Source: Gemmatimonadales bacterium
Lineage (GTDB): Bacteria > Gemmatimonadota > Gemmatimonadetes > Gemmatimonadales > GWC2-71-9
Assembly: GCA_040877595.1 (NCBI GenBank)
Contig: JBBDNM010000026.1
Span: forward strand, 78,732-142,731
Reading direction: 5' to 3'
DNA: 64,000 nucleotides
Position 1 is the first letter of the stretch, and the number at the start of each line of letters is the position of its first letter. The position numbers and the translations under genes were made by a program. Positions 10,394 through 62,769 of this stretch are shown here, in pieces. The notes under the pieces are model-generated. The model did no database searches and had not been told where the DNA came from. It worked only from the letters and a program-made list of their open reading frames with translations.

Positions 10394-10469
10394 GCTCCCT
10401 CGCGGACTCCGAGTAAGGCGAAGGTAGCGCTGCACCCATGAGGAGCGCCAGATGTCCACCGGACCCCCT

Positions 10470-10507
10470 TCGACATTCGACATTGAACATTCGACATTCG
10501 ACATTCG
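10470..10507. repeat. tandem heptamer array, about 5.4 x TCGACAT
   Basis: TCGACAT TCGACAT TGAACAT TCGACAT TCGACAT TCG. It sits 7 nt from the stop of the upstream - strand gene (10514) and 77 nt upstream of the DUF433 gene start. Confidence 0.95.
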
Positions 10508-10993: not shown

Positions 10994-11007
10994 CGCTAGG
11001 AGGAGCA

Positions 11008-11078
11008 CGGTGCATGGTACACGGTGCACGGGCCCCGAACGGTCCACCCCGTGCACGGTGCACCGTGCACCGTGCATC
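11008..11078. repeat. inverted pair of GTGCACN heptamer arrays (hairpin)
   Basis: Left arm CGGTGCATGGTACACGGTGCACGGG (11008-11032). 14-nt spacer. Right arm CCCCGTGCACGGTGCACCGTGCACCGTGCATC (11047-11078). About 22 of 25 positions are complementary. Fills the gap between the ubiE stop (11082) and the phosphoesterase start (10993). Confidence 0.9.
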
Positions 11079-11081
11079 GCC

Positions 11082-11798
11082 TCACGCGACCCTGCCCCAA
11101 TGAACCGCCACAACCCCCATCGTGAGCCGTTCATAGCCCACATCCACAAATCCCGCCTGCCGCATCCGCTCGGCCAACGCGTCCGGCTCGGGAAATTGCA
11201 GTACCGATGCTGGCAGATAGGTGTAGGCGTCCGTATGTTTGGACACCAAGCGGCCGACGCGGGGCAGGACGTGACGGAAGTACAACAGATACAGCGGCCG
11301 CACCGGCCACACCCTGGGTGTGGCGAATTCGAGAATCACGAGGCGCGCCCCGGGCTTCAACACGCGCCGCAGTTCCCGCACGCCTTGATCGAGGTCGGCC
11401 AGATTCCGCACCCCGAAGCCCACCATCGCCCCATCAAACTGCCGGTCCCCAAACGGCAGACCAAGCGTGTCCGCACCCACCGCCCGCACGGCTTGGGCCT
11501 TCTGCGTCCCAAGTCGCAACATCGGCACCACAAAGTCCGCGCCGATGACCGTGCCCGTAAAGCCCGGCCGCTTCGCCAACACTGCCGCCAAGTCCAGCGT
11601 GCCCGCGCACGCGTCGAGGTAGCGGCCGGCCGGGGCGCGCTCCCAGCCCAACTGACGCACGGCCCGTTTCCGCCACCACCGATCAATGTTGAGCGACAGC
11701 ACGTGATTGAGCAGGTCATAACGCGGCGCAATGGCCGTGAACATGCCCTTCACATACGATCGCTTTTCGGTTCCGGTGGGGACTGGCGACGCCGTCAT
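11082..11798 (-). CDS. ubiE: demethylmenaquinone/ubiquinone C-methyltransferase (UbiE/MenG)
   Basis: VKGMFTAIAPRYDLLNHVLSLNIDRWWRK. SAM motif LDACAGTLDL. FGVRNLADLDQGVRELRRVLKPGARLVILEF. Confidence 0.9.
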   Translation of the reverse strand: MTASPVPTGTEKRSYVKGMFTAIAPRYDLLNHVLSLNIDRWWRKRAVRQLGWERAPAGRYLDACAGTLDLAAVLAKRPGFTGTVIGADFVVPMLRLGTQKAQAVRAVGADTLGLPFGDRQFDGAMVGFGVRNLADLDQGVRELRRVLKPGARLVILEFATPRVWPVRPLYLLYFRHVLPRVGRLVSKHTDAYTYLPASVLQFPEPDALAERMRQAGFVDVGYERLTMGVVAVHWGRVA

Positions 11799-36000: not shown

Positions 36001-36018
36001 GCCACTCCTCACGTTCGG

Positions 36019-36059
36019 AGTTCCCGTGCACGGTGCACGGTGCACAGTGCACGGGAACT
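36019..36059. repeat. 41-nt near-perfect palindrome made of 4 x GTGCAC at 7-bp spacing
   Basis: AGTTCCC GTGCACg GTGCACg GTGCACa GTGCAC GGGAACT. It overlaps the TAG stop (36058-36060) of the acyl-CoA dehydrogenase gene and lies 19 nt upstream of the EVE start. Confidence 0.95.
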
Positions 36060-37239
36060 ACGAGAATGCGCTCAACCCCGTCACTTCCTGTCCCAGCACC
36101 AGAGTGTGAATGTCGTGCGTTCCCTCGTAGGTGTACACGCTCTCCAGGTTGGCCAAGTGCCGCATGGCCTGGTACTCGGCCAGAATGCCGTTGGCGCCGA
36201 GCAGCCGCCGTGTTTCGCGCGCCGCTTCACACGCGATGTGCACGTTGTTCCGCTTGGCGAGCGACACCTGCTGCGCCGTCATGGTACCAGCGTCCTTGAG
36301 CCGACCGAGTTGAAGCACGAGCAACTGACCCTTGGTGATCTCGGTGAGCATGTCCGCCAGGCGCTGCTGCTGCAGCTGGAACTGGCCGATGGGTCGGTCG
36401 AACATGACCCGGTTCTTCGCATAACGCCGCGCTTCGTCAAAACAGGCCATCGCGGCACCCAGCGCGCCCCAGGCGATGCCGTACCGCGCCTGCGTCAGGC
36501 ACATCAGCGGGCTCTTGAGCCCGCCCGACTTGGGCAGCAACGCGTCCTTCGGGACGTGGACATCCTCAAGCACCAGCTCGCTAGTGTCGCTCGCCCTGAG
36601 CGAGAGCTTGCCCTTCTGGTCCTTGGCGGTGAAGCCCCTGGTGTCCGTCGGCACGATGAATCCACGAATGGTCGAGGCGTCATCCAGTGCGCCTGTCTTG
36701 GCCCACACCACCGATACCGTCGCCAGCGACCCGTTGGTGATCCACATCTTGGCGCCGTTCAACACCCAGCCGTCCTTGGTCTCGCGCGCCGTGGTGATCA
36801 TGCCCGCGGGGTTCGAGCCAAAGTCGGGCTCGGTAAGGCCGAAACATCCGATCGCTTGCCCCGTCGCGAGTTTGGGGAGCCACGCCTTGCGCTGCTCCTC
36901 GCTCCCGAACGCGAAGATGGGATACATCACGAGAGCGCCCTGCACCGAGGCGAACGAACGAATCCCCGAATCGCCGCGCTCGAGTTCCTGCATGATCAAG
37001 CCATAGGCGACGTTGTTGAGGCCCGCACACCCGTAGTGCTCCGGCAGGTTGGCCCCGAACAACCCCATTTCACCCATGAGCGGGATCAGGTGCTTCGGAA
37101 ACTCTCCCTTGACGTACGCGTCCCCGATGATGGGCATGACTTCGTTATCCACGAGGCGGCGCACGGTAGCGCGCACGGCACACTCTTCTTCGGAGAGCAG
37201 GCCGTCCATTGCATAGAAATCCACACCTTCGAAGGCCAC
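36058..37239 (-). CDS. glutaryl-CoA dehydrogenase-like acyl-CoA dehydrogenase
   Basis: Start set at GTG 37239, just after GGAGGA (VAFEGVDFYAMDGLLSEEE...). GLTEPDFGSNPAGMITTA...LNGAKMWITNGS...YEGTHDIHTLVLG. 393 aa. The track ORF upstream of this overlaps the next gene. Confidence 0.9.
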   Translation of the reverse strand: MAFEGVDFYAMDGLLSEEECAVRATVRRLVDNEVMPIIGDAYVKGEFPKHLIPLMGEMGLFGANLPEHYGCAGLNNVAYGLIMQELERGDSGIRSFASVQGALVMYPIFAFGSEEQRKAWLPKLATGQAIGCFGLTEPDFGSNPAGMITTARETKDGWVLNGAKMWITNGSLATVSVVWAKTGALDDASTIRGFIVPTDTRGFTAKDQKGKLSLRASDTSELVLEDVHVPKDALLPKSGGLKSPLMCLTQARYGIAWGALGAAMACFDEARRYAKNRVMFDRPIGQFQLQQQRLADMLTEITKGQLLVLQLGRLKDAGTMTAQQVSLAKRNNVHIACEAARETRRLLGANGILAEYQAMRHLANLESVYTYEGTHDIHTLVLGQEVTGLSAFS

Positions 37240-46370: not shown

Positions 46371-47452
46371 CCGCCCGGACAGTTGCCGTCCCCTTGCCCC
46401 ACGGAGCGTATGGCGTGGTGGTCGGCTCCGGGCTGCTGGCGCAGGCGGGCGACCGCATTCGCAGGGCCTGCCCGGCGGCCCGCTACGCCCTCATCGCGGA
46501 CCAGACGGTCGCCGACCTCTACGCTGCGCGCCTGGCGGTCCAGTTGGACGCCACCATCCACACGTTCCCCGCCGGCGAGGCGCAGAAGACGCGCACGACG
46601 TGGACGCAGCTGACGGATGCGCTGCTGGCGAGCGGCCTCGGGCGTGATGGCGCGCTGGTCGCACTGGGCGGCGGCGTGCCGGGTGACGTGGCCGGCTTCG
46701 TCGCGGCGACGTACCTGCGCGGGATTCCGTACGTGCAGGTACCCACCACGTTGCTCGCCATGGTGGACAGCTCCGTGGGCGGGAAGACCGGGGTGGATGC
46801 GGCGCAGGGCAAGAACCTGATCGGGGCGTTTCACCAACCGCGACTCGTCCTGGCCGACGTGCATACGATCGCGACGCTCCCGCCAGCCCATCGCCGCGCG
46901 GGGTTGGTCGAAGCCCTCAAGCACGGCGCCGTCGCCGATGCGGGATACTTCGATCGTCTGGTCGCGGCGCGAGACGCCTTGCTTGCCGCCGACCCTGAGG
47001 CGCTGATCGAGGCTGTGGTCCGGTCCGTCGCGATCAAGGCCGAGGTCGTGACTGCGGACGCAACCGAGCGGGGCCGGCGAGCGGTTCTCAACGCGGGCCA
47101 CACCGTGGGCCACGCGCTCGAGACCGCCTCCGACTACACCCTCGCACATGGCGAGGCGGTCGCGATCGGCCTGGTGGTGGAGGCACGAATCGGCGAACAG
47201 CTGGGTGTGACGGCACGCGGTACCGCTGGCCGCCTGCGCGACGCGTTCCAACGGTGCGGGTTGCCCGTCTCGCCACCGACGATCGATCGCAATCGGTTGC
47301 GCGAGGCGCTTGCTGCCGACAAGAAGAACCGCGGCGGCGAGATTCGCCTCACCCTGCTGGCCTCGATCGGCGCCGTACACCAAACGAACACCGAAACTTG
47401 GACGACGCCGGTACCCGAGAATATGGTCGTCGAGGCCGTCCAAGCCTCCTGA
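46367..47452 (+). CDS. aroB: 3-dehydroquinate synthase
   Basis: GTGA overlap with the upstream gene. GGGVPGDVAGFVAATYLRGIPYVQVPTTLLAMVDSSVGGKTGV...NAGHTVGHALE. Confidence 0.92.
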   Translation: MTARTVAVPLPHGAYGVVVGSGLLAQAGDRIRRACPAARYALIADQTVADLYAARLAVQLDATIHTFPAGEAQKTRTTWTQLTDALLASGLGRDGALVALGGGVPGDVAGFVAATYLRGIPYVQVPTTLLAMVDSSVGGKTGVDAAQGKNLIGAFHQPRLVLADVHTIATLPPAHRRAGLVEALKHGAVADAGYFDRLVAARDALLAADPEALIEAVVRSVAIKAEVVTADATERGRRAVLNAGHTVGHALETASDYTLAHGEAVAIGLVVEARIGEQLGVTARGTAGRLRDAFQRCGLPVSPPTIDRNRLREALAADKKNRGGEIRLTLLASIGAVHQTNTETWTTPVPENMVVEAVQAS

Positions 47453-47638
47453 ACTCATCTCTATTGATAGCAACATGTTCCGCAATTCGCCAACATTTCA
47501 ACAATCGCTAACTTGTTAATGAATAACGACTTGCGTCATGGAACTGTCAGTGGCGTGAGACTGGCGTGACAGCGGTCGTGGGAAAGATTCGCAAGACAAT
47601 ATGCCGCAACACTTTGTGATGTGGAAAAATCGGTTTTC

Positions 47639-47667
47639 TTGACGGTTTTTCGGGCATTTCCTATATT
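47639..47667 (+). promoter_or_regulatory. sigma-70-type promoter for the downstream sigma factor gene
   Basis: TTGACG (47639-47644), 17-nt spacer, TATATT (47662-47667). It lies in a 258-bp AT-rich gap. AGGAG at 47701-47705 sits 5 nt before ATG 47711. Confidence 0.6.
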
Positions 47668-47710
47668 CGGTGTGCACGGATCGGTCCCACCACCACCGTC
47701 AGGAGCGTTC

Positions 47711-48631
47711 ATGGCCGTAGCAAAGAGCTCCGCAGCGAAGAAGAAAAAGGCTCCCGCCAAGTCCAAGGCGTTCTTTCGAGCCAGTCCATCCGGCGCGTTT
47801 GACCAGTATCTCCACGACATCCAGAAACTGCCCCTCATCAAGGATCCGCTCGAAGAGCGACGGCTTGCGCGCCTTGCCCAGAACGGTGATCCGACCGCGG
47901 CAGAACGCCTGGTAACCGCGAACCTGCGGTTCGTGATCTCGTACGTGAAGAAGTATCAGGGTCACGGCCTCGACTTGTCGGAACTGGTGGCGATCGGCAA
48001 CGAGGGTCTGCTCAAGGCGGTCAAGAAGTTCGACCCCGACCAGGGTGTCAAATTCATCTCGTACGCCGTGTGGTGGGTGCGGCAGGCGGTGCTCAAGGCG
48101 TTGGCCGAGCAAACGCGCTCCGTCCGTATCCCGCTCAACCAGAACAGCCAGCTCATCCGCATGTCCCGTACCGAGACCTACCTCACGCAGGAACTCGGAC
48201 GCGAGCCCACCGACAAGGAAATCGCCAAGGCGCTCGAAGAGACGGAAACCAACGTGCGGGCCGCACGACGGATGACGGCCGCCGAGATCTCGCTGGATGC
48301 GCCGATTGATCGGAGCGACAAGGATGCGGCGACGGTCGGCGAGCGCTTTGCCGGTCAGGAAGGCTCGGACATTGAAGAAGGCACCGACAAGACCCTCCAG
48401 CGCGAGTTTATTGACAGCATCTTCCAGAAGTACCTCACGCCGCGCGAGCGCAAGATCCTGTATCTCTACTATGGCCTCGACGAAGGCGCCGAGGGCATGA
48501 CGTTGGAGCGGATTGGCGAGCTGATGGGCGTCACCCGCGAACGGATCCGCCAGATACGGGAACGGGCCTTCGAGAAGTTGCGCCAGAGCCCGCACGGAAA
48601 GGCCCTCGCGGCATTCTGGGTCGCGGCATAG
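47711..48631 (+). CDS. sigma-70 family RNA polymerase sigma factor (group 1/2-like, short, Lys-rich N-tail)
   Basis: MAVAKSSAAKKKKAPAKSK... Region 2 NLRFVISYVKKYQGHGLDLSELVAIGNEGLLKAVKKFDPDQGVKFISYAVWWVRQAV. Region 4 TLERIGELMGVTRERIRQIRERAFEKLR. Confidence 0.9.
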   Translation: MAVAKSSAAKKKKAPAKSKAFFRASPSGAFDQYLHDIQKLPLIKDPLEERRLARLAQNGDPTAAERLVTANLRFVISYVKKYQGHGLDLSELVAIGNEGLLKAVKKFDPDQGVKFISYAVWWVRQAVLKALAEQTRSVRIPLNQNSQLIRMSRTETYLTQELGREPTDKEIAKALEETETNVRAARRMTAAEISLDAPIDRSDKDAATVGERFAGQEGSDIEEGTDKTLQREFIDSIFQKYLTPRERKILYLYYGLDEGAEGMTLERIGELMGVTRERIRQIRERAFEKLRQSPHGKALAAFWVAA

Positions 48632-50037
48632 ACGCCGCGCTGCAGTCCGCGCTGATCGCCCAGGTCGGTGAACGGCATGTCCGTTCCCGACCTGCGCTTT
48701 TAGCGACCTATGCGCGCGATGCGCTGCCCACGCTCGTCCGGCGTCCGGCCTTCGCCATCTTTCCCGGCTCGCGCGATGAGGTGGCCGGCGTTCTCAGGAT
48801 TCTTCACCACTACGGCGTTCCGTTCGTCGCGCGCGGGGCCGGCACCGGTCTCTCGGGCGGTGCGTTGGCCGACCGCGACGCCGCCCTGATCGTGCTGACC
48901 CGGCTCAACCGGATTCTCGAGATCGACTCCTACAACCGCTCGGCCCTGGTCGAACCCGGCCTGGTGAACGCCACGCTATCGGCGGCGGTGGCGCCCCTGG
49001 GCCTGCATTACGCCCCGGACCCTTCCAGCCAGACGGCGTGCACCCTCGGCGGCAACGTGGCCGAGAACGCCGGCGGGCCGCACTGCTTCAAGTACGGGGT
49101 GACCACCAACCACATACTCGAACTTGAGGTCGTCCTCCCCGACGGCACGGTGACCACGCTGGGGTCGCCGAGCGGCGCATCGTGGGGGCCGGACCTGGTG
49201 GGCCTGTTTGTTGGCTCTGAGGGAATGTTCGGCATCGCCACCGCTATTCGGGTTCGGCTGGTGCCCCTGCCGGGCGCCGTGCGGACGCTGCTCGCCGCCT
49301 TTCCCACGCTCCGCTCGGCCGGAGCCGCGGTTTCGGCGATCATTGAGGGAGGGATCGTGCCGGCCGCGCTCGAGATGATGGACCAGACCTGCATTCGTGT
49401 GGTCGAAGCTTCGCGCTATGCCGCAGGCTACCCGACCGATGCGGCGGCGGTCCTGATTGTCGAGCTGGACGGACCGGAGGCCGACGCCTTGGATCACCAG
49501 GTGCCGGCCGTCGAGGCCATTCTCCGGCGCGCCGGAGCCACCGAGGTACGGGTAGCAGCGGACCCTGCCGCGCGCGAGCGGCTCTGGCAGGGACGCAAGA
49601 AGGCGTTCGGGGCGCTGGGGCGCCTGAGCCCCGATCTCATGGTGCAGGACGCCGTCGTGCCTCGCACGGCATTACCGGACGTCTTGGACGCCATCAGCGC
49701 AATTGGCGAGCGACACGGTCTCACGATAGGGAACGTCTTTCATGCGGGGGACGGCAACCTGCACCCCAATATCTGCTTTGACGGGGCCGACCCCGCCGAG
49801 CGGGGCCGCGCCGAAGAGGCGATGGGGGAGATCATGGCCCTCTGCGTCGGGGCGGGTGGGACCATAACGGGGGAGCATGGTGTAGGGCTGGATAAGCTCA
49901 GGTACATGACCACCATATTCTCGCCAACGACCTTGGGCGCCATGCGCGCCGTACGGCGGGTTTTCGATGTCCAGGAGCGAGCAAACCCGGGAAAGGTTCT
50001 CCCGATACATTCCTGTCGGGAATGGGGAGGGAGGTAG
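48613..50037 (+). CDS. glcD: glycolate oxidase FAD-linked subunit GlcD (start codon unresolved)
   Basis: FVARGAGTGLSGGALA and the FAD-binding-4 fold. The in-frame translation upstream of the track start (GTG 48781) reads DAALQSALIAQVGERHVRSRPALLATYARDALPTLVRRPAFAIFPGSRDEV. This matches GlcD N-termini, but no ATG/GTG/TTG exists in frame after the stop at 48307-48309. 48613 (ATT) is a placeholder. Confidence 0.8.
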   Translation: MLGRGIDAALQSALIAQVGERHVRSRPALLATYARDALPTLVRRPAFAIFPGSRDEVAGVLRILHHYGVPFVARGAGTGLSGGALADRDAALIVLTRLNRILEIDSYNRSALVEPGLVNATLSAAVAPLGLHYAPDPSSQTACTLGGNVAENAGGPHCFKYGVTTNHILELEVVLPDGTVTTLGSPSGASWGPDLVGLFVGSEGMFGIATAIRVRLVPLPGAVRTLLAAFPTLRSAGAAVSAIIEGGIVPAALEMMDQTCIRVVEASRYAAGYPTDAAAVLIVELDGPEADALDHQVPAVEAILRRAGATEVRVAADPAARERLWQGRKKAFGALGRLSPDLMVQDAVVPRTALPDVLDAISAIGERHGLTIGNVFHAGDGNLHPNICFDGADPAERGRAEEAMGEIMALCVGAGGTITGEHGVGLDKLRYMTTIFSPTTLGAMRAVRRVFDVQERANPGKVLPIHSCREWGGR

Positions 50038-50144
50038 AAAAGATGAAAAGATGAAGAGTGGAAGAGTGGAAGAGTGGAAGAGTTGGTGGACGAGTGGAAG
50101 AGCGGAAGAGTTGGTGAAAGGGTGAAAGGGTGAAAGGGTTGGAT
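50037..50144. repeat. 108-nt array of 8-bp tandem units (GAAAAGAT x2, GAAGAGTK x4, GAAGAGCG, GAAGAGTT, GGTGAAAG x3, GGTTGGAT)
   Basis: Starts at the last base of the glcD stop codon and ends 6 nt before the four-helix-bundle gene stop. Only two C residues on the + strand. One 12-nt irregular unit, GGTGGACGAGTG. Confidence 0.95.
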
Positions 50145-50150
50145 AGGGAC

Positions 50151-50524
50151 TCATTCCAAGGATTGGCGCAGGAACCAGCAGAGCGTTCCCGCGTGGTTTC
50201 GTTGTCCGTCGAGGTCACGCCATTGATCCGGGGTGAGGTAACCGACATCCCGGGCAAGTAGTAGCCAGTTACCAACCTCATTCAATGAGGTAATTGCAAT
50301 GGACAGATACCGACGAAACTCCCGCTTGGTGGGCTTAGCGCTGCCCTCAGCGATATTGGCGCCAGCAGACGACGCTGCCCGACGCAATTGGGATGTCAGC
50401 CCTACTTCTCCGTCTCAGGAAACGAGCCTGTGACATGATAGAGCTGAACCGTCAGGGCGTGAGTTTCACCAACATTTCCACCCTTCAACTCTTCAACCCT
50501 TAGACTCTTCAAATGGAGGCCCAT
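50151..50524 (-). pseudogene. four-helix-bundle protein gene (TIGR02436/PF05635, 23S rRNA IVS protein/Avd family), frameshifted
   Basis: C-terminal frame: (V)GLTSQLRRAASSAGANIAEGSAKPTKREFRRYLSIAITSLNEVGNWLLLARDVGYL. N-terminal frame: MGLHLKSL...THALTVQLYHVTGSFPETEK, then TAG. The family motif FP..E(K/R)YGLTSQ is restored by adding one base in the TA- codon near 50403. The N-terminal 20 codons overlap the right-hand repeat array. Confidence 0.8.
50463..50518. repeat. 8-bp unit array, reverse-complement partner of the 50037-50144 array
   Basis: GTTTCACC AACATTTC CACCCTTC AACTCTTC AACCCTTA GACTCTTC AAATGGAG. AACTCTTC and GACTCTTC are reverse complements of GAAGAGTT and GAAGAGTC. GTTTCACC is the reverse complement of GGTGAAAC. 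Confidence 0.85.
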
Positions 50525-50903
50525 GATCCCTACACGTTGGAGAACGTTGTTCGACGAGCAGCTGGAGGATGCGGTCCACCGTTTACAGGAAGCGCGGAAA
50601 CACCTGGCATCCGGTGATGGCGCACGCGCCATGCAGGGGGCCTATCAGGCGACCGTGACGGCCGCCAGCATTCGGGTGTGGATGCAGAAGCATCCGTGGG
50701 ACACCACGTTGCCGGCGGACGAAATGCAACGCCGGGCCGTGGCCGAGTTTCCCACGGGGTTCGCCTCGATGGCGACCCTTGACCTGCCGAGCTTGTTGCG
50801 CGGATTCTGGTCGCCCGACGCGGCGCTACCGTATGTGTCCGAAACGGAGGCCTTTGTGCAGGCAACGCGTGACCAGTTCGACTCGGGGGTGGCTGCGGCC
50901 TGA
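50523..50903 (+). CDS. hypothetical helical protein (HEPN-like N-terminal pattern)
   Basis: 126-aa ORF with coding-like GC3. LEDAVHRLQEARKHLASGDGARAMQGAYQATVTAASIRVWM resembles the HEPN helix 1-2 pattern. Its ATG (50523-50525) overlaps the - strand ATG of the four-helix-bundle gene (CCATGATCC). Confidence 0.5.
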   Translation: MIPTRWRTLFDEQLEDAVHRLQEARKHLASGDGARAMQGAYQATVTAASIRVWMQKHPWDTTLPADEMQRRAVAEFPTGFASMATLDLPSLLRGFWSPDAALPYVSETEAFVQATRDQFDSGVAAA

Positions 50904-50968
50904 CCGCCGGGGCCGGCGCCGCGGAGGATGCGGCGCCGGACGGCACCCCACGCGTTGCGCCTCGGTCG

Positions 50969-51736
50969 GTGCATGGCATGGCCCGACTGCTCCAGGCCGC
51001 CACCCGCGAACGGTGGCGGGTCCGGGTGGAGCACGATGCGTGGTCCCCGCTGGACGCACCGGCCGACCTGGCCGTCAGCACGCGACTGTTCGACGCTGTT
51101 CGGGACCCCTCACCCGCGGATCAGGTGGTCACGGCCGGCGCCGGCGCGCCCATCGAGGCGGTCGGTCTCCAGGCTCCCGGCACCCGTCGTACCGTCGGCA
51201 GTGCGCTCGCCGTTGGCGCCGATCACGTTCGCGATGAGGTCCTCGGGCTTACCGCAGTCACCGGCGACGGACGGATCCTTACGGTCGGTGGACGCGTCCT
51301 CAAGAATGTCGCCGGGTACGACCTGGCCAAGTTGTTCATCGGCGGGTTCGATGCGTTCGGTGTCATTGTCGAAGCACACCTCCGCCTGCGTGACCGACTA
51401 CCACTCCACGACAACCCCACCGGACCAGTCGTGCTGAGCGTCGGCGCACTGCGGACCCAGCATGACTTGGCTATCACGCTGCTCGCCGCCGAGTTGCCAC
51501 CGCACCAGACGCTCACCACGCAGGACGGCGTGCGCTGGTCGGGCACGGCGGACGCCGCCGCCCTGCGGCGCGCGCGCGCTGCCTGCGCCCGACACCACAT
51601 GCCGCTCACGCTCGAGCGCGCGCCGTGGACTGTCCGATCAACCGTGGGTGTGCACGGCTCCTTCCGCGATGGGGTCGCGCCGCTCGTGGACGGGTTGCGG
51701 CGGTCGTTTGATCCGGCCGGGGTGTTCGTTGTCTAG
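50969..51736 (+). CDS. glcE: glycolate oxidase subunit GlcE (compact, divergent)
   Basis: VRDEVLGLTAVTGDGRILTVGGRVLKNVAGYDLAKLFIGGFDAFGVIVEAHLRLR. C-terminal FDPAGVFV. Start is GTG 50969 or ATG 50978. Confidence 0.75.
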   Translation: MHGMARLLQAATRERWRVRVEHDAWSPLDAPADLAVSTRLFDAVRDPSPADQVVTAGAGAPIEAVGLQAPGTRRTVGSALAVGADHVRDEVLGLTAVTGDGRILTVGGRVLKNVAGYDLAKLFIGGFDAFGVIVEAHLRLRDRLPLHDNPTGPVVLSVGALRTQHDLAITLLAAELPPHQTLTTQDGVRWSGTADAAALRRARAACARHHMPLTLERAPWTVRSTVGVHGSFRDGVAPLVDGLRRSFDPAGVFVV

Positions 51737-52931
51737 CGGGTACGCCGGGCTGGATCCGTGCGTGCATTGCGGGTTCTGTTTGCCCGCGTGCCCGACGTAC
51801 ACCGTAACCGGCAACGAGGCGGACAGTCCGCGCGGCCGCATTGTGCTGATGCAAGGCCTGGCCCGCGGCACGCTCGCCCCGACGGACGACACCGTCGCGC
51901 ATCACCTCGACCGCTGCCTCGGGTGTCGCGCCTGCGAACCCGCGTGCCCGTCGGGCGTGCAGTACGGTACCGCCCTCGAGGCAGCCCGCACGGACATCGC
52001 GACGGCACATGGAGTGCCGTGGCGGGCGCGGCTGGTATTGTTCCTGATGGCGCATGCGCCGTTGCGCCGCGTGGTGTTCTGGTGTGCGCGGCTGGTGCGG
52101 CCGTTCCTCCCGATCCGGATGCTCCAGGCAACGACCCCATGGCGGGGGGGCGGGAAGGCGGGACGGACGCGTCTTCCCGCCTTCCCGCGTTCACGCCCTT
52201 CCGCCTTGTTCCTCGGCTGCATCCAGCGTGAACTGTTTGGTCATGTGCATGACGCCACGCGCATCACGCTGGCCGCGAACGGCTACGCGTGCACTGCGGC
52301 GAACGGCCAAGGCTGTTGTGGCGCGCTGCATGCCCATGCGGGCCGTCACGACGACGCGCGCCGCCTCGCGCGGGTCAACGTGCTGGCCTTCCGCGACACC
52401 GAAGGACCCATCGTCGTGAACAGTGCCGGCTGCGGCGCGATGCTCAAACAGTACGGTTCATTGCTTGCCGACGACCCCTTGGCCGCGGACGCACGCCGCG
52501 TAGCCGACCGTGTGCGCGACGTGATGGAGGTGCTGGCCGAAGCGGGGCCGGCGCCAGGAGGTCCGCTCGCAGTCCGCGTGGCGTACGACGCGCCGTGCCA
52601 TTTGCAGCACGCGCAGGGCGTGGTCACCGAACCCCTGGCAGTACTTGCGGCTATTCCGGGACTCAGGGTGGTACCGCACGCCGGAGCTGATCGGTGTTGC
52701 GGCAGCGCGGGATTGTACAGCCTGCTCGAGCCGGCGCTCGCGGGTGAGGTTCTGGCCGGCAAGCTGGACGCGCTGGTGGCGAGCGATGTGGATGCCGTCG
52801 CTACGGGGAACCCGGGATGTCAGATGCAGATCGGCGCCGGATTGGCTGCCCGGGGCGTCGCGACGGCGGTCTGCCACCCTGTGGAACTGCTTGCTGCGAG
52901 CTACCGGTCCCGGGGGATACATTCTCCGTGA
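51729..52931 (+). CDS. glcF: glycolate oxidase iron-sulfur subunit GlcF
   Basis: TTG at 51729 overlaps the glcE end by 8 nt. Two ferredoxin-type clusters, CVHCGFCLPACPTY and CLGCRACEPACPSG. CCG domains with CCGSAG. Confidence 0.85.
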   Translation: MSSGYAGLDPCVHCGFCLPACPTYTVTGNEADSPRGRIVLMQGLARGTLAPTDDTVAHHLDRCLGCRACEPACPSGVQYGTALEAARTDIATAHGVPWRARLVLFLMAHAPLRRVVFWCARLVRPFLPIRMLQATTPWRGGGKAGRTRLPAFPRSRPSALFLGCIQRELFGHVHDATRITLAANGYACTAANGQGCCGALHAHAGRHDDARRLARVNVLAFRDTEGPIVVNSAGCGAMLKQYGSLLADDPLAADARRVADRVRDVMEVLAEAGPAPGGPLAVRVAYDAPCHLQHAQGVVTEPLAVLAAIPGLRVVPHAGADRCCGSAGLYSLLEPALAGEVLAGKLDALVASDVDAVATGNPGCQMQIGAGLAARGVATAVCHPVELLAASYRSRGIHSP

Positions 52932-53935
52932 TGAGTGACACCCTGCTCGCGGCGCCTCGGGTCCTGGATGCCGAGGCCCTGCCGTCGGCCGTGGCCGAGG
53001 CGGTGCTGGACCGTGCCCTGGCCGCCCCCGTGGATGCCGTGATCCTGGATATCGTGGGACCGGGTGCGGTGGCGAGTCTGCAGGGATTGCTCACCACGGA
53101 CGTAGAGAAGCCCGGTGACGGTGGGCATGCCTATGGCGCAATTCTGACGCCCAAGGGCATGATCTTGAGTGACTTGTGGATCTGGCGCGAGGCGGCGGGA
53201 GCGACGCTCGTGATCCCGCCCGAAGGCGCTGACGCGGTGCGGGAAATCTTCACGCGTTCCCTGCCTCCCCGACTGGCCAGGGTGTCGGAACGAGCCGGCA
53301 TGGTCCTCCTGCGGGTGGCGGGTCCCGAGACGGTGGCGGCGCTCGCGCGGGTGGGCCTCACCGTGCCGGAACCCGGACGCATCCAGGCTGCCATCACGGA
53401 TGGCATCCCACTCCACATCGCGCGGCCGACTGGGCCTGCCGCCTTCATCGCCGACCTGCTGATCGCTCAGGAGCATTTGGAAACGTTGCGCCGGCGGCTC
53501 GCGCGGGCCGGTGTCATGGTGAACGCGCCCTCAGGCTTGGAACTGGCGCGGGTACTGGCCGGCTGGCCGCGCCTTGGCGTGGAGATCGGCGACAAGACGC
53601 TGCCACAGGAAGTGCGTCTTGACGAGATCGGCGGAGTCTCGTACACCAAGGGCTGCTACACCGGGCAGGAGACCGTGGCGCGCGTGCACTTCCGTGGCCA
53701 TCCCAATCGCCACCTGGTGGGATTGATCTGGGACGGCGTTCCGAACGGTGCCATTCCGGACATCACGCAGGACGATCAGCCACGCGGACGTGTAGGCACT
53801 GTGCTGTGGCTCGAGCCCGTCGAGCGGTGGATCGGCCTCGCATTGCTTCGTCGAGAAGTGGCGCTCGACCGGCCCGTACTCGCGGCCGGCGCCGAGGCCA
53901 CCGTTGTGGAGTTGCCGTTCCGGATTGACCCATGA
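52931..53935 (+). CDS. ygfZ: YgfZ/GcvT-like folate-binding protein
   Basis: ATG at 52931 overlaps the glcF TGA. Signature YTKGCYTGQETVARVHFRGHPNR. Confidence 0.82.
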   Translation: MSDTLLAAPRVLDAEALPSAVAEAVLDRALAAPVDAVILDIVGPGAVASLQGLLTTDVEKPGDGGHAYGAILTPKGMILSDLWIWREAAGATLVIPPEGADAVREIFTRSLPPRLARVSERAGMVLLRVAGPETVAALARVGLTVPEPGRIQAAITDGIPLHIARPTGPAAFIADLLIAQEHLETLRRRLARAGVMVNAPSGLELARVLAGWPRLGVEIGDKTLPQEVRLDEIGGVSYTKGCYTGQETVARVHFRGHPNRHLVGLIWDGVPNGAIPDITQDDQPRGRVGTVLWLEPVERWIGLALLRREVALDRPVLAAGAEATVVELPFRIDP

Positions 53936-61324: not shown

Positions 61325-61398
61325 GGCGTGCGTAGTGCGTAGTGCGTGGTGCGTGGATATTCCGTTCTACGCACTACGCACCACGCACCACGCACGCC
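61325..61398. repeat. inverted pair of GTGCGTR heptamer arrays (32-nt arms, 10-nt loop)
   Basis: Left arm GGCGTGCGTA GTGCGTA GTGCGTG GTGCGTGG (61325-61356). Loop atattccgtt. Right arm CTACGCA CTACGCA CCACGCA CCACGCACGCC (61367-61398). 28 of 32 positions are complementary. Confidence 0.95.
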
Positions 61399-61440: not shown

Positions 61441-62769
61441 ATGGGTTTCCACACCTACGGCAAGTACATCCCGCGCTTGGCCGACGCGGTGAATCTCCAG
61501 GATCTGCTCGAGCAGCTGGGGGATTTCCTGTTGCAATCCGGCTTTGCCGGCGGGCCGTCGTGGCATCCGTACTGGGGGGAGTTTGGCGACGAGGACACGC
61601 GGTCCATGGACGCGTTGCGGCAGGCTATCCTCCAGGCGCTCAAGGACTCGGGCAAACTCACGCCCGAGATGTTGCAGGTGCTGCGCGGCGATACTACCGG
61701 CGATCCGAACCGTGATGCGCAGATCCAGGCTGAGCTGGCGGAGCTGCTGGATGAAATCGTCAAGCGGCTGATGGAGGAAGGATATCTCACGGCCGAGCAG
61801 GCGCCGCAGATGCCGGGCGGCCAACAGGGCATGTTCGGACCGGACGGTCAGGCGCGGGCGGCGAGTCAGGACGTCAACTTCGGAATTACGACCAAGGCGG
61901 TGGACTTCCTGGGCTACCGCTCGCTCAAGAGCCTGATCGGCGCCGTGGGCAAGTCAAGCTTCGGGAGCCACGACACCGCACACCTGAGCACGGGAATCGA
62001 GGCGGAGGCGGCGTCGAAGCAGTACGAATTTGGCGATGTGATGAACCTCGATGTACCGGAGACGCTCAAACGGACGTTGATGCGTGGACGCGGGGACGCG
62101 GGGACGCGAACGGGCAACAGCGAATCTGATCCGTTTCTCGATATCGACTATCCCGACTTGATGGTGCACCAATCTGAGTATCGGTCGTCGGCCGCAACGG
62201 TACTGATGCTCGACTGCTCGCACTCGATGATCCTGTACGGCGAAGACCGCTTCACGCCGGCCAAGAAGGTGGCGTTGGCTCTGACGCACCTGATCCGCAC
62301 GCAGTTCCCGGGCGACACGCTCAACGTGGTGCTGTTTCATGACGGCGCCGAGGAAATTCCGCTGGGCAAGCTGGCCGACGTGCAGGTGGGGCCATATCAC
62401 ACCAACACGGCCGAAGGCCTCAAGCTCGCGCGCCGCATCCTCCTGGCGCAGAAGAAGGACATGCGGCAGATCATCATGATCACGGACGGCAAGCCGTCCG
62501 CCCTCACGCTGCCGGACGGCCGGATCTATATCAATTCTGCCGCCCTGGACCCGCGCATCCTGCGCGCGACTTATCGCGAGGTCTCCGCCTGCCGCCGGGC
62601 GGGGATTCTGATCAACACGTTCATGCTGGCGCGGGAGCGGAGTCTGGTCGAGTTCGTCAAGCGGGTGTGCGAGATCGCGAAGGGGAAGGCCTACTTCACG
62701 TCCACGATGACGCTGGGGCAGTACATCCTGATGGATTTCATGAGGCGGAAGACGAGGCGGGTGGGGTAG
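61441..62769 (+). CDS. von Willebrand factor A (vWA) domain protein, probable partner of the AAA+ ATPase at 57287
   Basis: ATG at 61441 ([17 protein letters not shown]...). MIDAS motif LMLDCSHSM and [11 protein letters not shown]. The track ORF start at 61342 lies inside the repeat hairpin. Confidence 0.82.

Follow-up and report, generated by a model that had tools for sequence, protein, structure and literature searches.

An insert in a Gemmatimonadales glycolate oxidase operon resembles ORF-bearing rRNA intervening sequences: a decaying four-helix-bundle gene bracketed by inverted tandem arrays

Open reading frames (ORFs) of the four-helix-bundle (FHB) protein family are known from intervening sequences (IVSs) in 23S rRNA. 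ORF-bearing IVSs of this kind are on record for Leptospira (Ralph & McClelland 1993, as cited in PMC3936711). The 23S IVS of Coxiella carries a decaying ORF of the family (S23p), its 5′ end has two or three tandem GACAGAT heptamers, the number of which varies among strains, and its terminal repeats form a 28-bp stem; in vitro mapping and rapid amplification of cDNA ends place the RNase III cut in this stem, where the first repeat begins (PMC4990558). FHB genes have further been reported inside cas operons (PMC3936711) and noted in rRNA insertions of bacteria of the candidate phyla radiation. Here we describe an FHB gene in another setting, the glycolate oxidase (glc) operon of a Gemmatimonadales bacterium, within a 64,000-nt stretch of contig JBBDNM010000026.1 (assembly GCA_040877595.1). 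This whole stretch is hereafter called the window, and positions are given in its coordinates. Between glcD and glcE lies a cassette made of one gene of the PF05635/TIGR02436 family and two flanking arrays of short tandem repeats that are reverse complements of one another. We lean slightly towards the view that a widespread cassette of the ORF-bearing rRNA IVS type is present here as a decaying copy, and that its arms would act as a double-stranded RNA (dsRNA) stem cut by RNase III. The features of the locus are as follows.

48781..50037, + strand: glcD, 3′ part and stop codon (FAD_binding_4 and FAD-oxidase_C domains; NCBIfam GlcD, 1.6e-141)
50026..50512, no strand assigned: complete cassette insert, delimited by comparison with an empty site (L087) and with ORF-less arrays at the same junction (L083, L084, L088), and marked by a GC drop to ~50%
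50037..50144, + strand: left array, 8-nt period, G/A-rich on this strand (Tandem Repeats Finder (TRF), repeat search); seen from the FHB gene, the 3′ (C/T-rich) arm
50151..50403, − strand: C-terminal two-thirds of the FHB pseudogene, from GLTSQLRRAASSAGANIAEG to the stop codon at 50151–50153 (ORF 50151–50387, tblastn, PF05635/TIGR02436)
50404..50461, − strand: N-terminal remnant of the pseudogene, HALTVQLYHVTGSFPETEK as read on the minus strand, in another frame owing to a 1-nt deletion near 50403
50462..50463, no strand assigned: junction of a 147-nt deletion relative to the allele of contig L001 (allele alignments)
50463..50512, + strand: right array, C/T-rich on this strand (TRF at 50476–50512, inverted repeats, duplex test); seen from the FHB gene, the G/A-rich 5′ arm
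50513..50903, + strand: host ribosome-binding site (GGAGG) and orf126 (50523–50903; 11 homologues), outside the cassette

The left array begins with the final G of the glcD stop codon (TAG, 50035–50037), as the original prediction had it. It is almost free of C, with a GC skew of up to +0.92, and TRF resolves it into period-8 arrays at 50037–50055 (GAAAAGAT, two copies), 50053–50111 (GAAGAGTG, about seven copies) and 50113–50139 (GGTGAAAG, three copies), with a 28-nt super-period over 50058–50142. The right array is its reverse complement, and the best arms, of 45 nt each (50044–50088 versus 50467–50511), are 78% complementary. The arm-to-arm duplex has an energy of −49.5 kcal/mol on the + strand and −57.0 kcal/mol on the − strand; neither energy was attained in 300 dinucleotide shuffles. 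When the whole cassette was folded, the two arrays paired on both strands, in the minimum free energy as well as in the centroid structures, with z of −1.7 (+) and −5.4 (−). The expectation that inverted complementary arrays are able to form a stem around the gene was therefore borne out by the repeat search, by the folds of both strands and by the duplex test. Rfam returned no rRNA or other match to the cassette in 47000–53000, where weak miRNA-like matches fell on a hairpin in glcF alone.

The enclosed gene was confirmed, together with its frameshift near 50403, by profile matches. The frameshift-repaired gene (EK[Y]GLTSQLRR) matches PF05635 at 1e-28 (100 bits, curated cut-off 33.8) and TIGR02436 at 7e-27 (93.8 bits, curated cut-off 24). 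As it stands it is not translatable, lacking its leader, its first 14 codons and 1 nt near 50403, and is a pseudogene. Its closest homologue, P0001 from L001, keeps MAMPFERLEAWKTSHALTVQLYHVTGSFPETEKYG intact where the N-terminal remnant of the window is frameshifted. Neither a second FHB copy nor the same octamers were found elsewhere within the 64-kb window, and the cassette has no match in PADLOC or PHROG, used for defence and phage annotation. The nearest solved relatives of the protein are XCC0516 (the nearest, five chains deposited) and 2RLD.

Avd, the accessory protein of diversity-generating retroelements (DGRs), is a pentamer and falls in PF05635. The window protein resembles it in that its solved relatives 2GSC and 2RLD were each deposited as five chains. 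PF05635 is also met with in the literature on DGRs (PMC10053308). Membership of an Avd family as such, which had also been proposed for the gene, is not supported, since no solved Avd chain is matched by the window protein at E≤0.01 and the scanned neighbour genes contain no reverse transcriptase domain; template and variable repeats were not searched for.

The same cassette was recovered from three independent assemblies of other samples, contigs L001 and L002 (via the closest homologue, P0001) and L093, with flanks ~95–98% identical to those of the window and a common order of sigma-70, glcD, FHB, small ORF, glcE, glcF, GCV_T and Nramp. In the window, the left array exceeds that of L001, an allele of ~97% identity, by 44 nt (5.5 units). 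The L001 allele keeps the N-terminus (MAMPFERLEAWKTS), a leader of ~69 nt and a longer right array, and carries a 75-nt internal deletion inside the FHB gene. A 147-nt stretch of that allele is missing from the window: 14 N-terminal codons, the 5′ leader (~69 nt) and inner repeat units (~36 nt). Since the lesions differ (a 147-nt deletion and a frameshift in the window, a 75-nt deletion in L001), the gene is dying independently in both alleles. The arrays persist, changing by whole repeat units, while the gene decays. The original prediction had the right array overwriting the first 20 or so codons; comparison with L001 shows a simple deletion instead, taking 14 codons, the leader and the inner repeat units at once, and array overwriting of the N-terminus was rejected.

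The boundaries of the insertion into the glc operon, itself correctly predicted, are defined by locus L087, a true empty site where the glcD stop and the orf126 start overlap as ATGA. Homology of the window to this site stops past the glcD Trp codon 50023–50025, and 487 nt of insert stand in place of 13 nt (TCACCCTGGACGC). The last three sense codons of glcD (GGA GGG AGG) and its TAG (50026–50037) come from the insert; the cassette landed in the last glcD codons and gave the gene a new stop codon. On the right, the edge lies directly before the host GGAGG ribosome-binding site of orf126, which was left intact. GC content is ~50% across 50000–50550 versus ~67–70% around. The cassette is antisense to the operon, its FHB gene lying on the − strand, and its neighbour genes are sigma-70, glcD, orf126, glcE, glcF and that of a GCV_T protein.

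Of the ~930 bp between glcD and glcE that were thought foreign to the pathway, only 50026–50512 are so, and the remaining ~380 bp are the conserved host gene orf126. Its homologues form 11 sequence clusters, all of 126 aa, the one named source being a Gemmatimonadota metagenome-assembled genome (MAG). It lies between glcD and glcE in all six contigs read (P0121, P0123, P0128, P0129, P0131 and, as a JGI call of 118 aa, L001), overlapping both of these genes in the contigs read, and it is also present at the empty site L087. No match was found in Pfam, NCBIfam, PADLOC or PHROG. orf126 seems to belong to the glycolate oxidase operon as a lineage-specific component. We had considered it as a part of the cassette, for example as a partner protein, and rejected this, given its presence at the empty site and in every relative contig read.

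The comparison with ORF-bearing rRNA IVSs, suggested at the outset, proved apt. Both enclose an ORF of the same protein family, decaying in both, between terminal inverted repeats that form a stem, and the Coxiella IVS in particular shares an arm region made of tandem units in variable copy number; its own stem is cut by RNase III. rRNA IVSs are regarded as selfish elements. The differences concern the setting and the dimensions. The window copy lies antisense at a gene junction of a protein-coding operon, without any rRNA match in 47000–53000; its period is 8 nt, against 7 in Coxiella, and its arms measure 50–108 nt, against a stem of 28 bp. Furthermore, rRNA fragments stay together in the ribosome, whereas a cut mRNA yields two separate messages.

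To see how general this architecture is, an FHB alignment was scanned against one genome per species. This gave 80 loci from more than ten phyla; the groups covered were Gemmatimonadota, Acidobacteriota, Chloroflexota, Planctomycetota, Bacteroidota, Verrucomicrobiota, Nitrospira, Desulfobacterota, Myxococcota, Patescibacteria and archaea. Looking within 350 nt of each gene for tandem arrays of period ≤16 (mostly 7–10 nt), we found one upstream in 76 of the 80 loci, one downstream in 68 and arrays on both sides in 65. Array density was 2.86 per kb within 350 nt of the FHB gene versus 0.36 per kb at 350–2000 nt, an 8-fold difference. Local alignment of the upstream flank to the reverse complement of the downstream flank gave a median score of 42, as against a median of 19 and a maximum of 31 for positional controls, and exceeded the 95th percentile of the controls in 65/75 loci. 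Duplex calculations on whole 220-nt flanks gave meaningless values of ~−130 kcal/mol; in an arm-limited analysis, arms have a median length of 40 nt and a mean complementarity of 84%. The median copy number of the arrays is 4.1. Among arrays of period 7–10, 90 have a period of 7 nt, 33 of 8 nt, 25 of 9 nt and 9 of 10 nt. The cassette can therefore be described as one TIGR02436 gene between two reverse-complementary arrays of a 7–10-nt unit, and the predicted constant presence of inverted short-period arrays beside FHB genes holds for nearly all loci sampled.

Units vary in sequence between loci and even inside a single genome; what stays constant is the period and the mirror symmetry. L010, for instance, has AGACGGCA upstream and its reverse complement TGCCGTCT downstream; L016 has CAGACGGG (12.5 copies) upstream and TCTGCCCG (13 copies) downstream, and L028 has ATCGTGA (18 copies) and CGATTTA (11.6 copies), respectively. 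Arrays typically start a few nucleotides past the stop of the upstream gene and end just before the next start codon, and cassettes fill short gaps inside operons, the window copy likewise. The 3′ arm follows the stop codon of the FHB gene at a median distance of ~5 nt, and the 5′ units of cyanobacteria include GGAG and stop 5 nt short of the ATG. Both arrays were also present at 11 of 13 FHB loci on viral contigs. Three of the four plasmid copies read from cultured strains (Nostoc punctiforme PCC 73102, NPUN_RS35280; Anabaena variabilis ATCC 29413, AVA_RS28115; and Gemmatirosa kalamazoonensis KBS708, plasmid 1 at 1007.6–1008.0 kb) have both arms; the fourth, of Nostoc PCC 7120, has a 3′ array only and adjoins a transposase. 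The PF05635/TIGR02436 family counts 19,901 clusters at 50% identity. In the full-text literature, with most subscription journals outside reach, we found no account of FHB genes being generally flanked by inverted tandem arrays.

Several loci show other layouts. In L013 (430–1000), each side of the FHB gene has a C-rich 9-nt array (TCCCGTCCC and TCCCGTCGC) plus a G-rich array, so that the flanks score higher as direct (132) than as inverted repeats (45). L229 (544–1088), on plasmid 1 of Gemmatirosa kalamazoonensis, contains an unannotated FHB gene with one G-rich arm (GAGGGCAG, 4.4 copies) and two C-rich arms, one of which lies 14 nt past the G-rich arm, upstream of the gene, and the other right after the stop codon; this layout would amount to an ORF-less hairpin fused to a cassette. 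In an archaeal MAG (L068, 1860–2417), a heptamer-array FHB cassette is located directly upstream of a 23S rRNA gene, its 3′ arm reaching ~60 nt into the archaeal LSU match of Rfam that starts at 2358.

Certain properties of the arms bear on their mode of action. The first arm has more G than C in 46/54 loci, which the window copy fits. Since the order 'G-rich first, C-rich second' is the same after reverse complementation, it characterises the palindrome rather than the direction of the gene, and arm polarity relative to the FHB gene was dropped for that reason. Both arms differ between the orthologous cassettes L015/L020/L041 (AGCTTCT) and L081 (AGCTACG), and likewise between L083 (GGCGGACC) and L084 (GGCGGATG). 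Single-unit deviations from the array consensus were mirrored in the partner arm 94 times versus 9.7 by chance, a count that is inflated by the choice of alignment. The two arms thus evolve together across relatives while the unit drifts. As to expression, no sigma-70-like promoter was detected in the cassette 5′ spacers and no intrinsic terminator in the cassette, which makes read-through from the host plausible. With crude gene calls, the orientations of cassettes relative to their neighbours were ++ 20, −+ 12, +− 11 and −− 10.

By analogy with the Coxiella 23S IVS, we infer that processing of a dsRNA stem by RNase III is the best-supported mechanism. In a transcript crossing the cassette, the arms would pair into an imperfect dsRNA stem of ~45–50 bp around the gene. 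RNase III would cut this stem as it does in Coxiella, and cutting would free the cassette RNA and split glcD from the orf126-glcEF messages. The repeats would permit arm pairing in several registers, and slippage together with arm-to-arm copying might renew the arms.

A number of observations weigh against this scheme. The stems are imperfect (84% complementarity), and the arms of L095–L104 consist of 5-bp cores split by 2-nt unpaired positions, a pattern that looks more like a spaced protein-binding motif than like continuous dsRNA. The asymmetry of G·U wobbles between the strands is weak (107 versus 86, p=0.15) and the difference between sense and antisense duplex energy has p=0.06; RNA-level selection is for these reasons not demonstrated. 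In the window, the strand of the operon transcript (+) has a whole-region z of only −1.7, and the G-rich array pairs with certain GC-rich windows elsewhere no less well than with its partner array. According to the crude gene calls, the upstream neighbour of ~40% of cassettes is on the opposite strand, with no promoter detected. Moreover, closely related cassettes lie mostly at orthologous sites with homologous flanks and are stably inherited; recent transposition was considered and dropped, as related FHB genes mostly share flanks and none was shown to have moved. Lastly, RNase III cleavage is established for the Coxiella 23S IVS and is a prediction for copies outside rRNA, the glc cassette included.

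Inverted arrays also occur without an FHB gene, four times in the window alone:

10998–11082, intergenic: ORF-less hairpin, unit CACGGTG, predicted −58 kcal/mol
36015–36063, intergenic: ORF-less hairpin, unit GTGCACG, predicted −33 kcal/mol
52141..52197, + strand: ORF-less 8-nt array hairpin, GGCGGGAA / TTCCCGCC, in frame in a linker of GlcF, predicted −50 kcal/mol
61326–61397, intergenic: ORF-less hairpin, unit GTGCGTA, predicted −62 kcal/mol

The three intergenic heptamer hairpins have the G-rich arm first and look like ORF-less versions of the arms of the FHB cassette. The hairpin within glcF (51744–52931) encodes ...WRGGGKAGRTRLPAFPRSRPS...; in L083 and L084 this position of glcF holds hairpins with other units, and in L087 a short C-rich run only. 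At the glcD/orf126 junction, where the window has its cassette, L083 carries a near-perfect palindrome of GGCGGACC/GGTCCGAC units, L084–L086 have GGGCGGAT/CCGCCCAC arms around a 21-nt loop, and L088–L092 a short decayed remnant. In L084, one unit family is found at both the glcF hairpin and the glcD tail. The ORF-less arrays of L083 (3915–3975) and L084 (3895–3975) contain no stop codon, and gene callers read them as 20–30 extra C-terminal residues of GlcD (495–504 aa versus 474 aa in L087). ORF-less hairpins were also observed near FHB cassettes in other loci, and in L127 a C-terminal FHB remnant lies between arrays. These cases would fit a series leading from the full cassette through loss of the gene to an ORF-less hairpin.

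Arrays of other kinds were encountered as well. Two lone arrays of the window are without a nearby inverted partner, TTCGACA (5.6 copies, 10469–10507), which flanks a gene on the side opposite to the hairpin at 10998–11082, and GCGGGGAC (3.4 copies, 62082–62108). Three metagenome contigs of GC ~0.42 (L135, 1850–2318; L138, 600–1143; L166, 450–900) show a C-rich 8-mer array, repeats of ~37 nt and the complementary G-rich 8-mer array; the ~37-nt copies (…attacaagtcgccagtggggatcagcaaaaatccac…) are three to six in tandem, the element encloses no ORF, and the order of the arms is opposite to that of the FHB cassettes. The window unit GAAGAGTG was tried as a marker of related cassettes and abandoned, as it is a common simple repeat, with an FHB gene in none of 80 loci and an inverted partner in about 10.

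The ORF-less hairpins are central to an alternative that we hold to be unlikely, yet of appreciable weight, in which the arms work at the level of DNA and protein. They would be spaced binding sites, comparable to iterons or to the repeated sites of transposon ends, and their ligand, either the pentameric FHB protein or a host factor, would mobilise or maintain both cassettes and ORF-less hairpins. The analogy here is with the gene of a REP-associated tyrosine transposase (RAYT), flanked by inverted repetitive extragenic palindromic (REP) sequences, with dispersed REPIN hairpins. REP sequences are conserved within a genome, and RAYT is an HUH tyrosine transposase. The likeness lies in a gene flanked by inverted short repeats, the same repeat occurring as ORF-less hairpin doublets between operon genes. 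Such a role would account for the ORF-less hairpins in the window (four), at the glcD/orf126 junction of relatives and near other FHB cassettes, and for the use of one unit family at two sites of one operon in L084. Typical units, with 5–6 invariant and 1–2 variable positions, would also suit binding sites, and a median of 4.1 copies in an arm of ~40 nt corresponds roughly to one unit per pentamer subunit. However, position-clustered variation within units may likewise stem from the duplication of dimeric super-units. Units moreover differ between copies in one genome (L007 versus L054, L041 versus L059, and five units in the window), so that a single sequence-specific protein cannot serve all of them, whereas REP sequences are conserved genome-wide. 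The FHB fold is without known catalytic motif, in contrast to the HUH transposase, the arms are tandem arrays where REPs are single palindromes, and related cassettes are mostly found at orthologous sites.

A role in expression control or insulation is improbable in our view. Either a purine-rich, Shine-Dalgarno-like 5′ arm would be sequestered by the 3′ arm, or the C-rich arm would be a Rho-loading site. In the Rho version, the C-rich site would be masked only in read-through transcripts, in which the G-rich arm has already been made, and the cassette would be non-polar on host operons in both directions. The composition of the arms, G-rich first and C-rich second on both strands in 46/54 loci, is consistent with this, as are the start of the 3′ arm some 5 nt (median) after the stop codon, the GGAG of cyanobacterial units ending 5 nt before the ATG, and the lack of an intrinsic terminator in cassettes that lie inside operons in both orientations. 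Yet a self-made transcript lacking the 5′ arm is unsupported by any promoter signal in the 5′ spacers. Composition is the sole basis of the proposal, which is compatible with RNase III processing of a stem and does not exclude it.

Still less credence is due to the idea that the hairpins are independent simple-sequence palindromes formed in place by slippage, into which an FHB gene was inserted or by which it was captured. ORF-less hairpins outnumber the FHB cassette 4:1 in the window and occur even in frame within glcF, and the GAGTGGAA-type unit is common, being present in >120 metagenome contigs, with an FHB gene in 0/80 loci examined. This origin is nevertheless difficult to reconcile with arrays that are 8 times denser beside FHB genes than 350–2000 nt away, that border these genes in more than ten phyla and that pass down with them at orthologous sites; the FHB remnant between the arrays of L127 suggests, on the contrary, that hairpins derive from cassettes. 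Finally, chance low-complexity sequence or an assembly artefact has next to no probability: short-period repeats are prone to misassembly and the + strand fold has a modest z of −1.7, but the same cassette appears in three independent assemblies of other samples with length differences in multiples of the unit, 0/300 shuffles match the arm duplex, and the pattern recurs at dozens of unrelated FHB loci.

Two further described systems share some traits with the cassette. Integron cassettes carry attC on one side, need an integrase and an attI platform, and form cassette arrays. Like them, the FHB cassette is a small promoterless unit with a single ORF and an imperfect, hairpin-forming inverted repeat, inserted between genes; in contrast to attC, which is one-sided and not tandem, its repeats stand on both sides and are tandem. 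None of the integron features (integrase, attI, cassette arrays) was seen here; an integrase was not searched for. The intergenic TAACTGA heptanucleotide direct repeats of Beggiatoaceae and cyanobacteria have no reported link to FHB genes (PMC4679880). These and the cyanobacterial STRR sequences resemble the arms in having 7-nt tandem units in 2–6 copies, mostly intergenic and abutting start or stop codons, and in occurring in cyanobacteria and Bacteroidetes. They differ in being direct repeats of one conserved sequence, with no inverted partner.

For annotation, these arrays matter in that they get translated as protein extensions or linkers, as in the GlcD tails of L083 and L084 and the GlcF linker of the window, and that short purine-rich ORFs over arrays are spurious. 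Taken together, the comparisons suggest that the window copy is an IVS-type cassette outside rRNA, dead and antisense in the glc operon. The general array bracket around FHB genes is a more interesting result than this copy. Outside DGRs, the only studied context of the family has been the 23S rRNA IVS, whose biology has been an open question since 1993, and the array bracket ties scattered FHB copies, the cas-operon copies and the rRNA IVSs into one element type. As a tentative proposal, possible rather than probable, stand-alone FHB genes and nearby ORF-less inverted-array hairpins might constitute one very large class of selfish elements, no description of which was found, and of which the rRNA IVSs would be the rRNA-resident minority. 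Their arms would be processed as dsRNA and maybe bound at one unit per pentamer subunit, and the hairpins would owe their upkeep or spread to the protein, as REPINs do to RAYT. The bracket, with its co-evolving arms, points to the arms as the functional core of such elements.

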